From sequence record PX423614.1: a stretch of DNA of 64,000 bases. One strand, written 5' to 3'. Position numbers and translations under genes: made by a program. Origin of the DNA: a phage. The notes beneath the pieces are model-generated. The model saw only the letters and a program-made list of their open reading frames with translations. It was not told where the DNA came from and made no database searches. Numbering within the stretch: the first letter of the stretch is position 1; each line of letters opens with the position of its first letter. Positions 6,246-13,846 of this stretch are shown here, piece after piece.

Positions 6246-6293
6246 GACGCTCTTCTTGAGCGTCTTTGTCTGCCGCCTTTGTGCGGCTTTTTG
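6246..6293 (+). terminator. tandem terminator hairpins
   Basis: GACGCTC...GAGCGTC then GCCGCC...GCGGC followed by TTTTTG. Confidence 0.5.
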
Positions 6294-6452
6294 CGTAGCT
6301 AGTGATGCCTAAAGGGAACCCCCTTTGTGAATCATTGGCATGGTTCAATCCCTATTGGATGGTCATTTGACCGGGCCTTTAACGAGGCCTCTTTTTTAAG
6401 AGTCTTTACGAGGATTCTTAAATGAGTGAGGTCATGTTCACTCTTTCAGGTC

Positions 6453-6479
6453 GCCCCGTCTTCGGATGGGGCTTTTTTA
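6453..6479 (+). terminator. rho-independent terminator
   Basis: GCCCCgtcttcggatGGGGC followed by TTTTTT. Confidence 0.65.
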
Positions 6480-6917: not shown

Positions 6918-7118
6918 TTCATAGGTGCCAAGATTGACAAACTAAATTTCCTTATAAATCACACACTTATGATTTTCTCTGTAAAAAGTGGAAGTGATTT
7001 GGGACCAGAGGTAATGACTGTATATAGACCTCTGAAAATTATTGATAGAAATTAAGTTTAGAAATAATAAATTCTAAATAATATTTCTTATAATATCTTA
7101 CTTTAAGAGGATAAAGAT

Positions 7119-7424
7119 ATGACTTTAGAGGTTTATAAATTCCTTCTCGTACTCACTGTAACGATCTCTACTCTGGGATTTATTGCTTTAAGTAATAAGT
7201 CAGCAAGCTGGAAGCGTCGTTATGAGTTCCTTCTTAAGCAAGAGGAAGTCTTTAATGCTGATGTTCGTTCCAAACTGTTCAAAATGCAGGAGCAAATTGA
7301 AGCACGTAACGATCGTTTGGCTTCTTTGGGTTGGGAGATTAAGCGTATTCAAGATCTCAATAAGCAACTCACTGAAGAAATTAAACGCCAGAATGAGGAA
7401 ACAGAGGATGCGCTCAAAGGTTAA
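7119..7424 (+). CDS. membrane-anchored coiled-coil protein
   Basis: N-terminal hydrophobic helix then charged coiled-coil-like sequence; RBS AAGAGG. Confidence 0.5.
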   Translation: MTLEVYKFLLVLTVTISTLGFIALSNKSASWKRRYEFLLKQEEVFNADVRSKLFKMQEQIEARNDRLASLGWEIKRIQDLNKQLTEEIKRQNEETEDALKG

Positions 7425-7584
7425 GTTTACCACTGGTAACACTGTCCGCCTTGTTGGCGGTACTCAAACAGGTGTTATTCGTCGGAGAACAACGATTGAT
7501 GGTGTTCTCTGTTATCTTGTTCAGTGGAATGGTGAGTCTTCTCCTTCCTTCGAACGTCGTACTGATTTGGTGCTAGTCAAATGA
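7408..7584 (+). CDS. small protein (58 aa)
   Basis: ATG 7408 in frame of track ORF 7222-7584; GAGGA RBS; overlaps previous gene end. Confidence 0.4.
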   Translation: MRSKVKFTTGNTVRLVGGTQTGVIRRRTTIDGVLCYLVQWNGESSPSFERRTDLVLVK

Positions 7585-7814
7585 AGATGAACTTCGAAAT
7601 CATCCCAAAGGTTAAAGAAAAGCAGCTAATCTTCAGTGATCTCTCTAACGGGGATATTTTTAAATTTAAGAATGTTGATGCTGATACTTATCTTTGGATG
7701 AAAATTGACAAACGGTCTGCCATGAAGTTAAGTGACACTTCTGACATCACTGATGTATTTATCCATTCTGAAGTCTCTAAGTACAAATACAAAATTATCA
7801 TTGAGGGTAAGTGA
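7581..7814 (+). CDS. small early protein, member of GDxF paralog family
   Basis: shares a conserved L..G[DE].F motif (here LSNGDIF) with six other ORFs in 7.8-13.1 kb. Confidence 0.5.
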   Translation: MKMNFEIIPKVKEKQLIFSDLSNGDIFKFKNVDADTYLWMKIDKRSAMKLSDTSDITDVFIHSEVSKYKYKIIIEGK

Positions 7815-8044
7815 TGAAAATTAATCTCTTCTCTGTAGTTGTTACTAAAAAGCTCAGTGAGTTACGTCCGGGTGATGTATTCCGTTTACCGACTAACTCT
7901 GAAAATGTCTACCTAAAGACAGACACTAGCCTTAACGATATGCATCGTGTGGTTGGTCTTAGTCAGGGGACACTGTTCCAATTACAGGAAGACCATGAAG
8001 TTATCCCTGTACCTGATGTTCAAGTAACTCATATTGGTGGTTAA
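7811..8044 (+). CDS. small early protein, GDxF paralog family
   Basis: LRPGDVFRL...VIPVP motif pattern shared with paralogs. Confidence 0.55.
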   Translation: MMKINLFSVVVTKKLSELRPGDVFRLPTNSENVYLKTDTSLNDMHRVVGLSQGTLFQLQEDHEVIPVPDVQVTHIGG

Positions 8045-8269
8045 ATGAAGATTGATATTGATAATACCCCAGCGGTTGTAACTCTCGGTGATCTGAATTC
8101 GGGTGAAGTCTTCCAGTTTAACTACAACGAAACTCAATATTACATGCGTACTGCCTGTTATGGGGAAAACAAAAACTACTTTGTTAACCTCTCCACAGGT
8201 AAACGTGACTCTGAGTGTAAATCAACAGTGGTGCAGCGTGTACCTAATGTTCGACTGACCAATAAGTAA
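8045..8269 (+). CDS. small early protein, GDxF paralog family
   Basis: LNSGEVFQF pattern. Confidence 0.5.
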   Translation: MKIDIDNTPAVVTLGDLNSGEVFQFNYNETQYYMRTACYGENKNYFVNLSTGKRDSECKSTVVQRVPNVRLTNK

Positions 8270-8278
8270 CATCGACTT

Positions 8279-8306
8279 ATAGCCCTTGTGTTTATCAGAG
8301 GGCTAT
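8279..8306 (+). repeat. conserved hairpin ATAGCCCT...AGGGCTAT (copy 1 of a duplicated intergenic module)
   Basis: 8-bp stem; same hairpin at 13084-13111; both followed ~80 nt later by AACATCCG..GATAG. Confidence 0.5.
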
Positions 8307-8571
8307 GTGAGGATGTTCCTCAATTAACTATACTCTCAACGCCATATGGCTCACCGCTAGGGCGAGACTTGTCTCAAACATCCGGTGATAGACTAAAACC
8401 TGTTAATTTTCGAACAGCTTTCCGATATGTAGGGGTATGTATCGGTTTGGGATAGAGAACAATCTAGGGGTAGAGAGTTCTCGACAGTTAGTACAAGCGG
8501 AAGCCTTAACGTGTAGGGCTTCCCTTTATATTAACTGGCAAACCTGCCTCCACCAACAAAGAGAGAACGAT

Positions 8572-8712
8572 ATGAAGAAGACAACCAAACGTATGAACCG
8601 TCCTGAACGTATGGATGCAGTAGCAAATGGTGCTCTGAAGATTGAGTCTGCCATGCTTCGTCTGACAACTAACATCCGTAAGCGTCAAGGTGATTGGTTC
8701 TACGGTGGATAA
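8572..8712 (+). CDS. small basic protein (46 aa)
   Basis: AGAGAG RBS-like before ATG 8572; in frame of track ORF. Confidence 0.35.
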   Translation: MKKTTKRMNRPERMDAVANGALKIESAMLRLTTNIRKRQGDWFYGG

Positions 8713-8721
8713 TTAATAATG

Positions 8722-8754
8722 GGCTGCCCTTCGGGGTGGCCTTTGTTGTTTTAA
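8722..8754 (+). terminator. terminator-like hairpin with ttcg loop
   Basis: GGCTGCCCttcgGGGTGGCC followed by TTTGTTGTTTT. Confidence 0.5.
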
Positions 8755-8795
8755 TTAAGGGACAACTCTTACTTAAACTAACAAGAGAGGTTGAT

Positions 8796-9047
8796 ATGTT
8801 CAATCGTTTATTTGACCGTAAAGGTCGCACTGACATACTGATACCTTCTATCGGTGTGCCAGCTAAGTTCGGTGAGATACGTGCTGGTGATTTCTTCATG
8901 GAATCAGGTCGTCTTCATCTGAAGATCAACCTCGATCACGCTGTTGAAATCCTCAGTGATGATAAGCCAATCATCGGCACTTCGGTGTACAGTGCAAACC
9001 ATACTGTATTTGTTGTCAATGTTCAGATTGAGATTAAATCACCATGA
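8796..9047 (+). CDS. small early protein, GDxF paralog family
   Basis: AGAGAGG RBS; IRAGDFFM pattern. Confidence 0.5.
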   Translation: MFNRLFDRKGRTDILIPSIGVPAKFGEIRAGDFFMESGRLHLKINLDHAVEILSDDKPIIGTSVYSANHTVFVVNVQIEIKSP

Positions 9048-9301
9048 AGACAAACTTCCGAGCAGCAGTTATTACGAAAGTAATAGCAGTTGGTGATGTA
9101 ATGATGCAAGTTCCTCTGAACACTCGTTACATTGCCATTGACCGAATGGGTTATGTGTGGGCTTGGAAGTGGAAGCCTACTTACAATAAACTGTTCGACG
9201 AATACCAGTGCGCTGGGCCTTACATGCCAACGTTGGTTGGTGTGTATGAAGACGGTCCTTGTCGTACTCCTCAGTTAATTGAACTACCGGCGTGTGCTTA
9301 G
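9044..9301 (+). CDS. hypothetical protein
   Basis: ORF track; overlapping start/stop with neighbour. Confidence 0.45.
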   Translation: MKTNFRAAVITKVIAVGDVMMQVPLNTRYIAIDRMGYVWAWKWKPTYNKLFDEYQCAGPYMPTLVGVYEDGPCRTPQLIELPACA

Positions 9302-9302
9302 T

Positions 9303-9467
9303 ATGATTAAATGGTTCAAGCGTCTTGTGCATCTGCATGATTGGGTAATCCTTGAAAAATATACGCTGAAGATTACTGACGATCACGGTGGGACAAAGCA
9401 CAAAGGTCTTCGCTATATTATGCAGTGTAAAGTGTGTGGTCATGTTACCAAGCGTGACATGATCTAA
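9303..9467 (+). CDS. small Cys-containing protein, tandem paralog 1 (MIKWFKRL...)
   Basis: N-terminus MIKWFKRL and C-terminal CKVCGH shared with the next gene. Confidence 0.5.
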   Translation: MIKWFKRLVHLHDWVILEKYTLKITDDHGGTKHKGLRYIMQCKVCGHVTKRDMI

Positions 9468-9476
9468 GGGATCATT

Positions 9477-9641
9477 ATGATTAAATGGTTCAAGCGTCTC
9501 TTTCATTTCCATGAGTGGGAAGATCTTTCTACTTATGAATTGACGATCACAAATAAACTTACTGACAGAGAGCGACAAGGGTTGCGTATCTACTCTCGCT
9601 GTAAAGTGTGTGGTCTGCACAAGAAAACAGATCTGATCTAA
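9477..9641 (+). CDS. small Cys-containing protein, tandem paralog 2
   Basis: MIKWFKRLFHFHEW...CKVCGLHKKTDLI, paralog of 9303-9467. Confidence 0.5.
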   Translation: MIKWFKRLFHFHEWEDLSTYELTITNKLTDRERQGLRIYSRCKVCGLHKKTDLI

Positions 9642-9649
9642 GGGGTGTT

Positions 9650-9859
9650 ATGTTCTTTCGTAAGAAAAAGCCCGAAGATTCTGGATGTAAACACGAGTGG
9701 GTGATCACTGAAAACCTACACATCACTCACGCTAAAGATACTCCAGTAGAGAGAAAAGAGTCTCGTGTATCTCGTGTCTGTAAGCGCTGTTTGAAAATAG
9801 AACAGCATAAAGTTCCCGGTCATATCGGTCATGATGTGGCCTTGCGTATTTTCACTTAA
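9650..9859 (+). CDS. small Cys-containing protein, distant paralog 3
   Basis: CKHEWVITE...CKRCL pattern; ATG 9650. Confidence 0.4.
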   Translation: MFFRKKKPEDSGCKHEWVITENLHITHAKDTPVERKESRVSRVCKRCLKIEQHKVPGHIGHDVALRIFT

Positions 9860-9868
9860 ACAAATCCA

Positions 9869-9944
9869 GCACCCTTAGCTCAATGGACAGAGCAGCGACC
9901 TTCTAAGTCGTTGGTTACAGGTTCGAATCCTGTAGGGTGCACCA
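9869..9944 (+). tRNA. tRNA-Arg (anticodon UCU)
   Basis: cloverleaf: acceptor GCACCCT/AGGGTGC, D-stem GCTC/GAGC, anticodon stem-loop with TCT at positions 34-36, T-arm ACAGG-TTCGAAT-CCTGT, encoded 3' CCA. Confidence 0.85.
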
Positions 9945-9962
9945 ATCAACGTAGGAGGGTTT

Positions 9963-10103
9963 ATGACCTCTGAGTTTAATGAGTGGTTCGATGATATCTT
10001 TACTTCTCCTTTGTTCAGCGAAGAAGAAAGAGAAGAACTTAAAACCTACCTATGGATGGCTTGGCGAGATAGCCGCCGTAAGGCGCTTCAGGAGGGATCA
10101 TGA
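9963..10103 (+). CDS. small acidic protein (46 aa)
   Basis: strong AGGAGG RBS before ATG 9963; stop overlaps next start. Confidence 0.45.
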   Translation: MTSEFNEWFDDIFTSPLFSEEEREELKTYLWMAWRDSRRKALQEGS

Positions 10104-10426
10104 GCTGGGGTGGTGTAATTACCTTAACCTGTATCTTTATCGCCTGTGTAGCTCTTACAGGCTGTGTACAGCATCGTCCTGATGGATGGTGTGCATTATC
10201 TGTAGAAGGTGTCTGTGTTTCCCGTTGGCATAGTGGGGAGAAGGTTCCTAGCGGTGAAATTGATATGCGTTATGCTGGCGCTTCTTGTTCAAATGGCGGT
10301 GCTGTTGATGAGAAGGCTTATGCAGGGCGTGATATGGAGACACAAGGTGATTGGTCGCGTTATGACTTTATCTCCCGTGGTGTACAGTGTAGTGGCTCTG
10401 TGACAACAACAGGTAAGGAGTGGTGA
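10100..10426 (+). CDS. putative lipoprotein
   Basis: signal peptide with lipobox-like LTGC; Cys-rich mature part. Confidence 0.5.
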   Translation: MSWGGVITLTCIFIACVALTGCVQHRPDGWCALSVEGVCVSRWHSGEKVPSGEIDMRYAGASCSNGGAVDEKAYAGRDMETQGDWSRYDFISRGVQCSGSVTTTGKEW

Positions 10427-10427
10427 T

Positions 10428-10682
10428 ATGTCTGGTCATTATTCTGATACGAAAGCATTGCTTGAAACAGCAGCTAAGACTTCATGCCAACAGCAAGTAA
10501 AAATGTTGTTGGTTGATATTAACAATCTGCGCTGGCTTATTAAAGAAGGTCATCTTGGAAACGCTGCCTATTACAACGTTAAAGATATCCTTCGCCGCCA
10601 GCACTTCCTTATCCACGGAAACGTGGTCACTCGCAACTACCAATGGAACGGTCAATGGTTACAGCAGCGTATGTCCTCCTGA
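10428..10682 (+). CDS. hypothetical protein
   Basis: ORF track; AGGAG RBS. Confidence 0.5.
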   Translation: MSGHYSDTKALLETAAKTSCQQQVKMLLVDINNLRWLIKEGHLGNAAYYNVKDILRRQHFLIHGNVVTRNYQWNGQWLQQRMSS

Positions 10683-10909
10683 TTTATGTTATTGGTTGGT
10701 GGTTGGCAGCCATTGTAGTTAAATGGTGCTTCAAAACCAATACACTCTACAACTTCTTCCATTCCTCATGGAGTGGTAAGCCTGATGAATACTCTATTTG
10801 GACGGTGATATTCTTCTGGCCTTTTATGCTGATCTTTATCCTCTTCTTACCTTTACTTATGTTGATAGGTTGGGTAATGGATAAGGTGACAATCTTTGTT
10901 ACTAAGTAA
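10643..10909 (+). CDS. small integral membrane protein
   Basis: two to three hydrophobic helices; true start uncertain. Confidence 0.4.
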   Translation: MERSMVTAAYVLLIYVIGWWLAAIVVKWCFKTNTLYNFFHSSWSGKPDEYSIWTVIFFWPFMLIFILFLPLLMLIGWVMDKVTIFVTK

Positions 10910-11185
10910 TATCGTGAAGGATTCTTACGAGAGTCCTTTGAGATAGGACTTCAGATCTCCTATCAACTAACCGCTCAATGTTGAGCATTTTATTCACATA
11001 AGCCCCTCATGGGCTGGGTTTAATGCCGGTAAGCGTTTTACGCTATCCACTACAGCATCGGATTGTTAGGTCTTACATGCAATATTAATTAATAGGATAT
11101 GGGAGGATTCGTCCCCTCCCCCTATTTATGAAAGCATTCTTCCGAGAGTTCTCTCATAAATTGGTCCATAACTAAAGGTGGTAAA

Positions 11186-11440
11186 ATGAAAGTTAACAAA
11201 CCAGCCAGTAAGAACGCAATACCACTCAGCGCTCTGCGTCTTGGGGATTGCTTCATGTACCCTAACAGTGAAGATGGTGATTTGTACATCTTACTGTCTA
11301 CCGAGTTCTCAACTCGACTCTGCATCAAGGGCGCGGACGAGCATAGACTTGTAGCCTGTCTTAACACAGGCCGAGCGACAGCTCCTCGTAAAGATGTTGC
11401 TGTTATTCCTATTAAAGCTGAAGCAACTATTAAGGAGTAA
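11186..11440 (+). CDS. small early protein, GDxF paralog family
   Basis: LRLGDCFMY pattern; AAAGGTGG RBS. Confidence 0.55.
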   Translation: MKVNKPASKNAIPLSALRLGDCFMYPNSEDGDLYILLSTEFSTRLCIKGADEHRLVACLNTGRATAPRKDVAVIPIKAEATIKE

Positions 11441-11443
11441 GCA

Positions 11444-11707
11444 ATGGCTCTGACCATTAACAAAACTCGTATTGCGGATATTCCTCTAATGGTGGCAGGT
11501 GTTTCTATCGGTTCTTTCTTTACTTTGAAAGAAGATAAAGAACAAACCATTTACATGAAAGTGAACAAAAGCTCTAATGGTTGTGAATACCACCGAGCTG
11601 TGTCTATGCAGAGTGGATACGTTCGTAATATGGCATCCAATATGCCAGTTGGTGTTGTGTTTGAATCAGCAACTCTGGATTTAGTGGAGAAGATCAGTGA
11701 AACATAA
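11444..11707 (+). CDS. small early protein, divergent GDxF-family paralog
   Basis: similar length and hydrophobic pattern; AAGGAG RBS. Confidence 0.45.
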   Translation: MALTINKTRIADIPLMVAGVSIGSFFTLKEDKEQTIYMKVNKSSNGCEYHRAVSMQSGYVRNMASNMPVGVVFESATLDLVEKISET

Positions 11708-11954
11708 AGACCATCCAAAGTATGTATCGCTATTGGATGCAGCCCTTCTCTGCACGTACTGGCTCCTTATTGTTATTGGGGTTGTGCTAATGATATGTGG
11801 TGTCGTACAGTTCTTTATGTATCTGCAAAGCGTGTTAGATATCACATTAGCTAACACTATAATCCTTGCAATTCTCGGTATTATTGCTTTCTGTGTGATT
11901 GTCTTCTTCGTTTGGTTATCTATGAACGACGACTCTACACACACCTTCTATTGA
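11697..11954 (+). CDS. small integral membrane protein
   Basis: two long hydrophobic helices. Confidence 0.45.
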   Translation: MKHKDHPKYVSLLDAALLCTYWLLIVIGVVLMICGVVQFFMYLQSVLDITLANTIILAILGIIAFCVIVFFVWLSMNDDSTHTFY

Positions 11955-11967
11955 CAGGAGAGAATCA

Positions 11968-12084
11968 GTGAGAAAACGTGCCTACTCTGAAGAAGAAATG
12001 GTTAACCTGAAAGGATTCGGTCAACGACAGCCCGATGGTTCAGTTATCTGGTACATTAACGGACAGAAAAAGGCAAGTAAATAA
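11968..12084 (+). CDS. small protein (38 aa), GTG start
   Basis: AGGAG RBS before GTG 11968; followed by terminator-like hairpin. Confidence 0.3.
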   Translation: MRKRAYSEEEMVNLKGFGQRQPDGSVIWYINGQKKASK

Positions 12085-12152
12085 GCCCTCTTCTCTCCTC
12101 CTTTTAACTACTATGACGCCTCTCTTTTCGGCGCTGTTTTGGAGCTTCAAAA

Positions 12153-12566
12153 ATGTCTGGGAAATTCCCTAACGTAAGCAAGAAATTGGCTTACTTAACG
12201 TATAAAGAAAACATTGACCTTCTGGTCAAGCTATATCCGGCTTCATTCAACAAGCAATTCCCTCTTCCTTTGGAGCCTAATGTCCACAAGGAAATCGCCC
12301 GCAAGACTGGTTGGTCAGCGGAGAAAACAAGCATGGTGCTCAACATCTGGACTACTCGTATGGAGTATGTGATGATGGCCTGTAGCACTGGTAAACGCTT
12401 CAAGCTGCACTCTGTAGCTATGAAGATTCGTAGCCCTATTGACCCTGAGCCGATGGCTGGCTTTATTAGCCGTCTGAAATCTTTCCGTGATCGTGGTCGT
12501 GTAGTGAAATTCAAGCATGACTTCTCTTACAAGTTTGGATACGAAGCGTTCCAATTTGTTGTTTAA
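12153..12566 (+). CDS. ProQ/FinO-domain-like RNA-binding protein
   Basis: N-terminal region aligns by eye with the ProQ/FinO domain (LYPASF, PLPL, WTTRMEYVMMACSTGKRFKLHS versus ProQ FPHCF, PLKIGI, YTSSWRYL...G.RVDL). Confidence 0.4.
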   Translation: MSGKFPNVSKKLAYLTYKENIDLLVKLYPASFNKQFPLPLEPNVHKEIARKTGWSAEKTSMVLNIWTTRMEYVMMACSTGKRFKLHSVAMKIRSPIDPEPMAGFISRLKSFRDRGRVVKFKHDFSYKFGYEAFQFVV

Positions 12567-12593
12567 TCTCTCTTTAATGTAAGGTAATAAAGC

Positions 12594-12827
12594 ATGTCTA
12601 AAGTTAGCGCAATTGATGCCATCCGTCAGCCGTTCCAGTTCCAGTCTAAATCAACTCAGACCCACAGCGAACCTAAACAGATTCGTCTGGGCGGTACAGA
12701 GAAGACTGTATTCGATATTGCGAAAAATAAAAGCGTAACCATCGTCGAAGGCGGCGAACTGGTTAATGTTTCCCACCGTATTCGCACTGGCAAGACTGCC
12801 AAAGATCGTGCTAAGAAAGGTTTGTAA
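12594..12827 (+). CDS. hypothetical protein
   Basis: ORF track; RBS-like AAGG. Confidence 0.45.
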   Translation: MSKVSAIDAIRQPFQFQSKSTQTHSEPKQIRLGGTEKTVFDIAKNKSVTIVEGGELVNVSHRIRTGKTAKDRAKKGL

Positions 12828-13078
12828 TGCAAATTTCCAATAAAACACCTCCTGAGCCTACTGTTCAAGTAAAAGATATGACACCGGGAGATGTGTTTCG
12901 TTCGGTTGAATATCCGGGGGAATTCTTTATCCGAATCCCTTCTGCCTCTGTTGCTGGTATCGCTAAGCCGGTAACAGCAGTTCAGTTGAGCACAGGTCAT
13001 CTCTTCCGTTTAGAGATTGACATGGCAGTTATTCCTGTTCCGACAGCAATCCTCCGCTTCGACGGAGATACAGAGTAA
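12827..13078 (+). CDS. small early protein, GDxF paralog family
   Basis: MTPGDVFRS...VIPVP; closest paralog of 7811-8044. Confidence 0.55.
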   Translation: MQISNKTPPEPTVQVKDMTPGDVFRSVEYPGEFFIRIPSASVAGIAKPVTAVQLSTGHLFRLEIDMAVIPVPTAILRFDGDTE

Positions 13079-13083
13079 CATCT

Positions 13084-13111
13084 ATAGCCCTCGTGAGTAT
13101 CAGAGGGCTAT
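13084..13111 (+). repeat. conserved hairpin ATAGCCCTC...GAGGGCTAT (copy 2 of duplicated intergenic module)
   Basis: 9-bp stem; homologous to 8279-8306; followed by GCTAGGGAGAG and GAACATCCG..GATAG as in copy 1. Confidence 0.5.
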
Positions 13112-13319
13112 GTGAGCTATTCTGGCTCAACTAACCTAATCTTAATTTAATCTTTCCCGTATGGGGCCGATGCTAGGGAGAGGAATAATCCTCGAACATC
13201 CGTCGGATAGAATATTTTAAGAGCAGGTTATCCACAGATATTGGGTGATATCTATTTAATTGGCCTTAAAGCTTGGCTCTCTTATGAGAGTCCTTTTTTA
13301 AGTTCAAAGAAGAGGTTGT

Positions 13320-13487
13320 ATGGATAATAAGTTGAAAGCTAAATTCTTATTGGCAGCAATCTTTATTTGCTTAGCCACTGTGGGGTTTGTCAGGATGTAC
13401 TCTTTTGCATCTTGCGAGTTAAGCAAGAATAACAGAGGGTCTTACAACTGGCTAACCAATCAATGTGACAAACAGGAGAAGTTATGA
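13320..13487 (+). CDS. small membrane/secreted protein (55 aa)
   Basis: AAGAGG RBS; hydrophobic N-terminus; stop overlaps next ATG. Confidence 0.4.
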   Translation: MDNKLKAKFLLAAIFICLATVGFVRMYSFASCELSKNNRGSYNWLTNQCDKQEKL

Positions 13488-13846
13488 ACCTACGCCCCAT
13501 TAAAGGCCATGTGAACCTGTCTACGCTTCATAAAGTAGCAAATGATTTAGGTGGTATGGATGAGGAAGATCTGAAACAGCAACTGCTTTGGATTTCTCAT
13601 GGTATCAAGGCGGCAAAGGCCAAAATGGCTCGTGCACAAGGTAAACTAAAAGCGAATAAATATCTTATTCGCCGTCGTAATACCTTACCTCAGGATGTGG
13701 TAAGTTTAGCTTTATCAGGATATAAAGCAGCAGAGGTAGAGCTTCAGGAAGCAGAGTTTGAAAAAATGCGCTTCCAAGAGAACTATCGAAACTTCCGTAG
13801 TATTGACTACATTCGCAAATCTCTGAGCCTTTTGGTAGCAGAGTAA
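13484..13846 (+). CDS. hypothetical protein
   Basis: ORF track; AGGAG RBS. Confidence 0.5.
   Translation: MNLRPIKGHVNLSTLHKVANDLGGMDEEDLKQQLLWISHGIKAAKAKMARAQGKLKANKYLIRRRNTLPQDVVSLALSGYKAAEVELQEAEFEKMRFQENYRNFRSIDYIRKSLSLLVAE

Follow-up and report, generated by a model that had tools for sequence, protein, structure and literature searches.

Seven early-block genes of a phiEco32-like coliphage encode diverged members of a small protein family with a predicted SH3-like fold

Background

Early genes of virulent phages are for the most part singletons without annotation. In this report, we analyzed seven small genes, here called m1 to m7, that lie between positions 7,581 and 13,078 of a phage sequence of 64,000 nucleotides (record PX423614.1; this whole stretch is referred to as the window). 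An initial annotation had described the seven open reading frames (ORFs) as diverged paralogues marked by a GDxF-type motif, and had suggested diversifying selection on them, as in host-takeover or anti-defence gene families. Our main finding is that the seven are diverged paralogues, and that they are exactly the members that the window holds of a larger phage protein superfamily, each copy of which is predicted to be a single SH3-like five-stranded beta-barrel. Taken alone, the homology, the fold and the accessory nature of the genes are highly probable in our assessment. What is new is a superfamily that reaches beyond one phage lineage, has no solved structure, and is neither curated nor described in the sources searched; expanded families of small accessory genes in early regions, and the SH3-like fold class itself, are already familiar. 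One superfamily now joins the seven window genes, 5 to 9 genes in each related phage examined, gp21 of phage N4 and several hundred metagenomic clusters.

Results and discussion

Seven diverged genes form one family

The + strand carries all seven ORFs, which encode proteins of 74 to 87 amino acids (aa). The start of the second had to be shifted: it is probably the ATG at 7814 and not the GTG at 7811, where the mechanically called ORF of 77 aa begins, because the orthologues are 76 aa long and a GAGGG Shine-Dalgarno sequence lies upstream. The genes, with the PHROG group that each matches, are as follows:

m1, 7581..7814, + strand: 77 aa, phrog_10911 type; C-terminal half divergent
m2, 7814..8044, + strand: 76 aa from ATG 7814, phrog_16423; most consensus-like copy and hub of the family
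m3, 8045..8269, + strand: 74 aa, phrog_9955; abuts m2 directly
m4, 8796..9047, + strand: 83 aa, phrog_22099; most divergent member
m5, 11186..11440, + strand: 84 aa, phrog_7832; first gene past a 275-bp intergenic region
m6, 11444..11707, + strand: 87 aa, phrog_12612; in tandem with m5; motif G-S-F-F
m7, 12827..13078, + strand: 83 aa, phrog_6570; start overlaps the stop of an upstream 77-aa gene

Most of them have a Shine-Dalgarno sequence or a start that overlaps the stop codon of the gene upstream, as does that of m1 with a 58-aa gene (ATGA). The ATG of m4 at 8796 is supported by orthologues 83 to 84 aa long, and the annotators of phage SU7 placed a promoter in the intergenic region that precedes m5. 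For each of the seven, related phages and metagenomes hold orthologues of equal length (61 + 5 clusters at 90% identity); m1 has 17 orthologue clusters.

The motif by which the family had been recognized stands for the most part. Its G..F core is invariant in all seven proteins and is followed by D or E after the G in six, the ORF at 11444 (m6) having G-S-F-F instead. The VIPVP-like motif reported near the C terminus of several copies is exact in the ORFs at 7811 and 12827, reads VIPIK in that at 11186, and is degenerate in the rest. In a seven-way MAFFT alignment, only M1, G and F are invariant and identity to the first sequence is 13 to 27%, so low that the significance of the resemblance had to be tested. 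Pairwise identities range from 13 to 31%, and pairwise phmmer comparison links only m2 with m7 (1e-7) and m2 with m3 (7e-6). Such figures would speak for a motif shared by chance between small ORFs that are unrelated or non-coding, as would the lack of a significant pairwise match within the window for most copies.

Profile comparisons give a different answer. A hidden Markov model (HMM) built from m2, m3 and m7, and iterated on the 400 ORFs of the window, recruits m5 and m1, and the next in rank are m6 and m4 (E 0.05 and 0.09). Shared matches to PHROG profiles 6570, 7832, 7431, 9955, 16423, 12612 and 10911 interconnect all copies except m4, which matches phrog_22099 only. As a more independent probe, we used a profile of 112 database representatives, none of which has 40% identity or more over 50 residues to a window copy. 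With this distant-only profile, six members stand out among the 400 ORFs (m2, E 1.3e-19; m3, 1.3e-18; m7, 3.3e-18; m5, 7.9e-18; m6, 2.8e-12; m1, 2.8e-10), and m4 comes next at E 0.045. Profile-profile comparison with hhalign gives probabilities of 99.1% for m2, 98.9% for m3 and m7, 98.8% over 80 columns for m5, 96.5% for m1 and 96.2% for m6.

The most divergent copy, m4, has an N-terminal extension of 19 aa, keeps GDFF, and has lost the L-x-T-G turn. Its orthologue in the related phage TH34 reaches E 3e-4 with the family HMM in hmmsearch. When an alignment of five m4 orthologues was compared with a 95-sequence family alignment, hhalign returned 95.3% (E 2e-8), with 57 columns matched, which is nearly the full domain; the real score of 38.2 compares with 9.4 +/- 2.2 (maximum 18.6) in 200 column shuffles, a z of about 13.

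The other 18 proteins of the 5.7 to 13.9 kb block all have hhalign probabilities below 3.4%, against 65 to 99% for the seven, and profile searches of the ORFs of the 64-kb window found no further member. In the T7 genome, no ORF falls below E 1 with the family profile (T4 and T5 were not scanned). The alignment test that the initial annotation proposed therefore comes out far beyond chance: profile E values descend to 1e-19, the seven separate cleanly from their 18 neighbors, from the 393 other window ORFs and from the whole of T7, and even the weakest member is well clear of its shuffles. Together with the purifying selection and the confident fold prediction described below, these results refute chance resemblance, whose probability we consider vanishingly small and which is effectively excluded.

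Two further ORFs in the array were considered. The 58-aa gene at 7408-7584 (+), coupled translationally to m1 by the ATGA overlap, was rejected as an eighth member (hhalign probability 0.6%); it looks beta-rich, has a weak Pfam match to Mtf2_C (E 0.004), and its position is occupied by a true family member in genomes with a Kuravirus-type early region. A 142-aa ORF on the opposite strand, 11122-11550 (-), runs across m5 and m6 and is a shadow ORF, given the strong purifying selection in the + frame (ratio of nonsynonymous to synonymous substitution rates, dN/dS, 0.03 to 0.07).

A predicted SH3-like barrel with a conserved scaffold

Structure prediction, suggested earlier as a check on the family, yields for m2 a five-stranded, small and partly open beta-barrel with SH3 topology. 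The AlphaFold2 model, computed from a 52-sequence family alignment (mean predicted local distance difference test score, pLDDT, 82.1; predicted template modelling score 0.67), is all-beta, with strands at residues 23-26, 29-41, 44-49, 54-59 and 63-66. The model of m4 from its own five sequences is unusable (pLDDT 41), so the membership of m4 rests on the profile-profile evidence.

The structural neighbors of the m2 model are the C-terminal domain of DtxR, IdeR and MntR (scores 4.7 to 5.9), VapX (5.5), domain I of EF-P (5.4), HspQ (5.2), Tudor domains (about 5), the Spt5 KOW domain (5.0), CarD and the UvrD C-terminal domain (4.9), and FeoA (4.4 to 4.9). A Foldseek search against the full PDB gave nothing below E 0.035 and returned the same fold class, and the family profile had no significant match among all PDB sequences. 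Together, these results place the family in the SH3-like fold class, without a close solved relative.

No Pfam match to FeoA (PF04023) was obtained at E<=1 with window members, distant members or the consensus; unlike FeoA and the DtxR-IdeR-MntR C-terminal domain, the family is found only in phages and lacks any iron-transport or regulator context. Sequence identity to the uL2 SH3-like domain, KOW, Tudor, PWWP, EF-P/eIF5A domain I, CarD, the UvrD C-terminal domain and RapA is 4 to 17%. Neither a KOW signature nor a Tudor aromatic cage is evident in the conserved columns, in which F24 and Y34 form the lone aromatic pair, and Pfam gave no match to Tudor, KOW or chromo-like readers. Moreover, domains of the uL2, KOW and Tudor type sit in larger cellular proteins, whereas the family copies are stand-alone, multicopy phage genes.

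Across the family, 18 alignment columns are conserved, and they lie in or beside the predicted strands and tight turns. Numbered as in m2, these columns include M2, K3 and I4; F/L15, D17 and L18; G21, D22, V23 and F24; Y34, M35 and K36; A47, V48 and L50; T52 and G53; V64 and V67. The resulting scaffold pattern is an N-terminal MKI followed by [F/L]-x-D-L-x-x-G-D-V-F, Y-M-K, A-V-x-L-x-T-G and V-x-x-V. The window copies share the general family description of a single domain of about 70 to 90 aa with G-[DE]-x-F at about residues 20 to 25, Y-[MIL]-[KR], and V-x-[PV]-V near the C terminus, the exceptions being GSFF in m6 and degenerate C-terminal motifs in m1 and m4. Variation is concentrated in the N-terminal tail (residues 5-12), in residues 27-32, 38-46 and 54-63, and in the C-terminal tail, and insertions cluster after residue 42. 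Sites that are polymorphic within orthologous types avoid the conserved columns (24% versus 60%, odds ratio 0.21, p 7e-11). Net charge varies widely: isoelectric points (pI) run from 5.0 to 8.8 in the window, and their median among distant members is 5.4.

Position in a block of presumed early genes

By megablast, the closest relatives of the 7000-13500 region are phiEco32-like coliphages (Gordonclarkvirinae, C3 morphotype). The search matched 108 phage records, almost all of them Escherichia podophages of this subfamily, with vB_EcoP_PAS59 as the best relative (96.4% identity over 96% of the query), followed by SU7, EK010, ECBP2 and BASEL phages Bas86-88. Early/middle and late genes of phiEco32-like phages form opposed transcription blocks, with which the guanine-cytosine skew of the window agrees (PMC8948821): it is positive up to about 44 kb and negative beyond. 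The block that holds the seven genes runs opposite to the late genes and is syntenic with phi32_91-116 and with coding sequences (CDSs) 69-125 of SU10, the flanking genes being homologous. The homologous block is early by experiment in phiEco32 and was assigned as early in SU10 (PMC8948821, PMC4281155), and this homology suggests early expression of the seven genes in the present phage as well. On this region, the SU10 genome paper remarks only on "many short CDSs" (PMC4281155).

Copies turn over rapidly under purifying selection

The early regions of ten Gordonclarkvirinae were scanned with the family HMM, and the hits were clustered at 45% identity. The repertoire comprises 20 types, with 5 to 9 copies per genome:

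window, 7; PAS59, 7; SU7, 5; ECBP2, 7; TH34, 8
4E8, 6; MN05, 8; SGF2, 9; TH38, 8
phiEco32, 9 (gp95-98, 104, 109, 113-115)

Genomes of the Suseptimavirus type and those whose early region is of the Kuravirus type (4E8, MN05, SGF2, TH38 and phiEco32) have almost no types in common. There are two exceptions: PAS59 carries the phi32_104 type, and 4E8 carries that of m7, no other window type recurring in an early region of the Kuravirus type. Lundtoftevirus and Salmonella phages share the m6 type.

Repertoires differ even among close relatives. Of the genomes with 90% identity or more to the window, SU7 lacks both m1 and m3 and PAS59 lacks m3, while PAS59 and TH34 each have one extra copy. The copy-number variation in related genomes that the initial annotation anticipated is therefore real. 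In addition, single copies have been replaced by divergent alleles, with saturated synonymous divergence (dS), within flanks that are 88 to 100% identical at the protein level. The alleles of m1 in ECBP2 and TH34 are 65 to 70% identical to that of the window, and that of m3 in ECBP2 62%; m6 is 66% identical in TH34 yet 100% in ECBP2; and the SU7 allele of m7 is 61% identical between flanks that are 100% identical.

The suggestion of diversifying selection is not supported at the level of whole genes. Averaged over orthologues in SU7, PAS59, ECBP2 and TH34 (Nei-Gojobori method), gene-wide dN/dS is 0.03 to 0.31, with values of 0.11 for m1 versus TH34, 0.14 to 0.43 for m2 and 0.03 to 0.07 for m5. 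Flanking genes span a range that includes these values (about 0 to 0.57, mostly 0.04 to 0.4). The sole value above 1 is that of m7 versus PAS59 (1.96), on about 7 substitutions. The pattern supports ancient divergence, gene gain and loss, and cassette-like recombination of old alleles, rather than gene-wide positive selection. The seven ORFs are real genes, and they are selectively maintained.

The family extends to N4 and to metagenomic phages

An exhaustive HMMER search of 1.84 billion representatives (50% clustering), with a profile that omitted m4, recovered 323 proteins at E<=1e-3. Single-domain proteins of 68 to 105 aa account for 123 of the 150 best matches, and the consensus is uniform: MKI..(8-10)..tF.DLkpGDVF.f.....YMK......NAVNLetGel..f..d.eVIPV.aelvi. 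The family also includes two-domain fusions of 111 to 170 aa. One protein of 167 aa (P0185) joins a single family domain to a KTSC domain, the sole fusion to another domain that was found. Four long metagenomic proteins (P0070, P0074, P0085 and P0092; 387 to 679 aa) carry 5 to 6 tandem copies of the domain behind a common N-terminal region; Pfam identified no domain in these multi-repeat proteins, and in P0085 a D-x-S-x-S motif, seen by eye, hints at a vWA/MIDAS site. A few long repeat proteins were discarded as false positives, for example P0068 (FG-GAP/flagellin).

A structure search of BFVD returned predicted structures from other Gordonclarkvirinae (ECBP2, Paul, NJ01, 172-1 and LAMP) and from unrelated phages, namely N4 (gp21), EP335, Serratia Hera, Proteus Myduc, Erwinia Cronus, Morganella MP2, and Pseudomonas tf and PaP3. 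N4 gp21 belongs to the family by sequence too (E 5e-16). By profile, it forms one family with PHROGs 6570, 7832, 7431, 8365, 9955, 12612, 16423, 10911, 34455 and 22099, and the predicted structures of this set match those of the window copies with TM scores of 0.74 to 0.77. Gp21 and the PHROG members resemble the window copies in size, in the MKI...GDxF...YMK...NAVNL-TG...VIPV pattern and in their place among non-structural genes. N4 has a single copy in the 20 kb examined, located in the gp15-44 region and not among gp1-14, whereas the window has seven.

Multi-copy arrays are not peculiar to the Gordonclarkvirinae lineage: one unrelated environmental contig has four family genes with five domains, three of the genes being adjacent, another has three, and EP335 gave three BFVD matches. 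Homologues lie in long one-directional runs of small genes that lack an assigned function, contexts that appear typical of accessory or early regions. On a 122 kb contig, the member P0080 is directly upstream of a gene with matches to Gad2 (anti-Gabija, PF26128) and PolyA_pol, and further genes of 79 to 82 aa adjoin, a neighborhood that looks accessory or anti-defence-like.

Databases have so far kept these proteins apart or missed them. No model in Pfam, NCBIfam or PADLOC covers any member. PHROGs divides the proteins into about 10 separate families, all labelled "unknown function", where we recognize one superfamily. Source names of more than 100 homologues include no functional name, and in the literature on phiEco32, SU7, SU10, N4 gp21 and paralogues we found no description of the family. 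Single-sequence tblastn with the consensus or N4 gp21 reaches close relatives only. As Pfam, NCBIfam and the PDB hold nothing for it, the family merits a curated entry.

Possible roles of the family

We take these to be cytoplasmic phage proteins of about 75 aa, encoded by accessory early genes that phiEco32-like phages keep as a repertoire of 5 to 9 copies per genome; copies are gained and lost, and alleles are exchanged in the manner of cassettes. We propose that each copy would act soon after infection as a small stoichiometric binder with a host target of its own, which it would block or redirect: either a housekeeping protein to be taken over or a strain-specific defence protein. The conserved barrel would supply the scaffold, and the choice of target would lie with the variable surfaces. 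We put this whole picture forward tentatively, its chances being in our judgement a little short of even, as the role is inferred; a host-takeover or anti-defence role, as suggested in the initial annotation, is a plausible hypothesis.

Phages encode small single-domain inhibitors such as T7 Gp2, T7 Gp5.9, T4 Dmd, Ocr and the anti-CRISPRs, and arrays of paralogous small genes occur in the early or host-takeover regions of virulent phages. The family is like such inhibitors and arrays in that its genes are small, early or accessory, dispensable and patchily distributed, and turn over rapidly. It showed no sequence or structural relationship to any of them in Pfam, PADLOC and PDB searches. Nor was there a match to known anti-defence families (PADLOC-DB at E<=0.1; Pfam including Gad2, Ocr and Tad), a result that excludes membership of those families, not an anti-defence function.

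A bolder form of the proposal is unlikely: one robust SH3-like scaffold would have given rise to dozens of specificities, shuffled as cassettes between phages, each neutralizing a different defence system or host factor, much as in the multigene immune-evasion families of large eukaryotic viruses. The two-domain and 5-6-repeat proteins would then be multivalent versions. If this were true, the 323 sequence clusters, N4 gp21 included, would join the known takeover or anti-defence proteins as a large class so far untapped.

It is also conceivable, if rather unlikely, that the proteins are small nucleic-acid binders like the KOW, Tudor, Sm and uL2 SH3 domains, and regulate transcription, translation or RNA stability; phage or host RNA or DNA would be the substrate, in which the paralogues would recognize different sequences or structures. 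The top structural neighbors do contact RNA or DNA (uL2, EF-P/eIF5A domain I, KOW, PWWP-ssDNA, HspQ/YccV), a weakly ProQ/FinO-like protein and a tRNA gene are encoded in the same early block, and m1, m3 and m5 are mildly basic. However, these structural matches are weak and at the level of the fold only, the family is mostly acidic (median pI 5.4; 56% below 6), and no basic patch is conserved, K36 being the sole basic residue among the 18 conserved columns. We give little credence to a further alternative, modelled on the Tudor-like domains of CarD, UvrD, Mfd and RapA and on NusG KOW, in which all copies bind one conserved host machine, for example RNA polymerase or the ribosome, and multiple copies provide dosage, redundancy or graded tuning.

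Competition between phages or with other elements, for example through superinfection exclusion or the neutralization of toxin-antitoxin or abortive-infection toxins, likewise has a low probability: the matches cited for it come nowhere near significance, the proteins lack the membrane or export features that exclusion proteins typically have, and the idea largely overlaps with the anti-defence branch of our proposal. A part in the virion or its morphogenesis, for example as decoration proteins or assembly chaperones, is very improbable and effectively excluded. Virions do contain some small SH3-like or beta-barrel proteins, and one BFVD homologue is labelled "endolysin", which is probably an annotation error; but the genes are in the early block, opposite to the late genes, the copies are variably present, and mass spectrometry of phage preparations detected 34 proteins, none of them an SU10 homologue (about 8 to 9.5 kDa).

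Natural presence/absence variants are at hand in culture collections (SU7, PAS59, ECBP2, BASEL Bas86-88 and N4). They open the way to the function of small early proteins, and to the question of whether differences in repertoire explain differences in host range or in sensitivity to defence.

Other features of the early block

A second family of tandem paralogues lies between m4 and m5, at 9303-9467, 9477-9641 and 9650-9859 (+), with products of 54, 54 and 69 aa. Its motif, M..F....H.W...L.IT....R....CK.C, contains an H/C...C..C pattern that is possibly zinc-ribbon-like; a Pfam search with this family gave no match. For the copy at 9303-9467, the best matches in SU7, ECBP2 and TH34 reach only 50 to 55% identity, so divergent alleles occur here too.

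Directly after this family, at 9869-9944 (+), is a gene for tRNA-Arg (anticodon TCT), annotated likewise in SU7, ECBP2, MN05 and phiEco32. The 137-aa early protein encoded at 12153-12566 (+) has a sub-threshold match to ProQ/FinO (PF04352; E 5e-5, 23.6 bits versus a gathering threshold of 27), is 96 to 97% conserved in relatives, and may be a phage ProQ-like RNA chaperone. Upstream of the array, a 101-aa protein is encoded at 7119-7424 (+), with homologues in ECBP2, 4E8 and phiEco32. Several records label it "DNA helicase", probably a mis-annotation that has been propagated, as the protein is far too small and has no supporting Pfam match.

In a consensus scan, which is uninformative for promoters, sigma-70 consensus sites were depleted (6 versus 19 expected). 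Terminator-like hairpins on the + strand are enriched (16 versus 6.5 expected). Four of them fall within 230 bp at 6246-6472, one is just upstream of m4 (8721-8742, +) and another just downstream of m7 (13275-13292, +).

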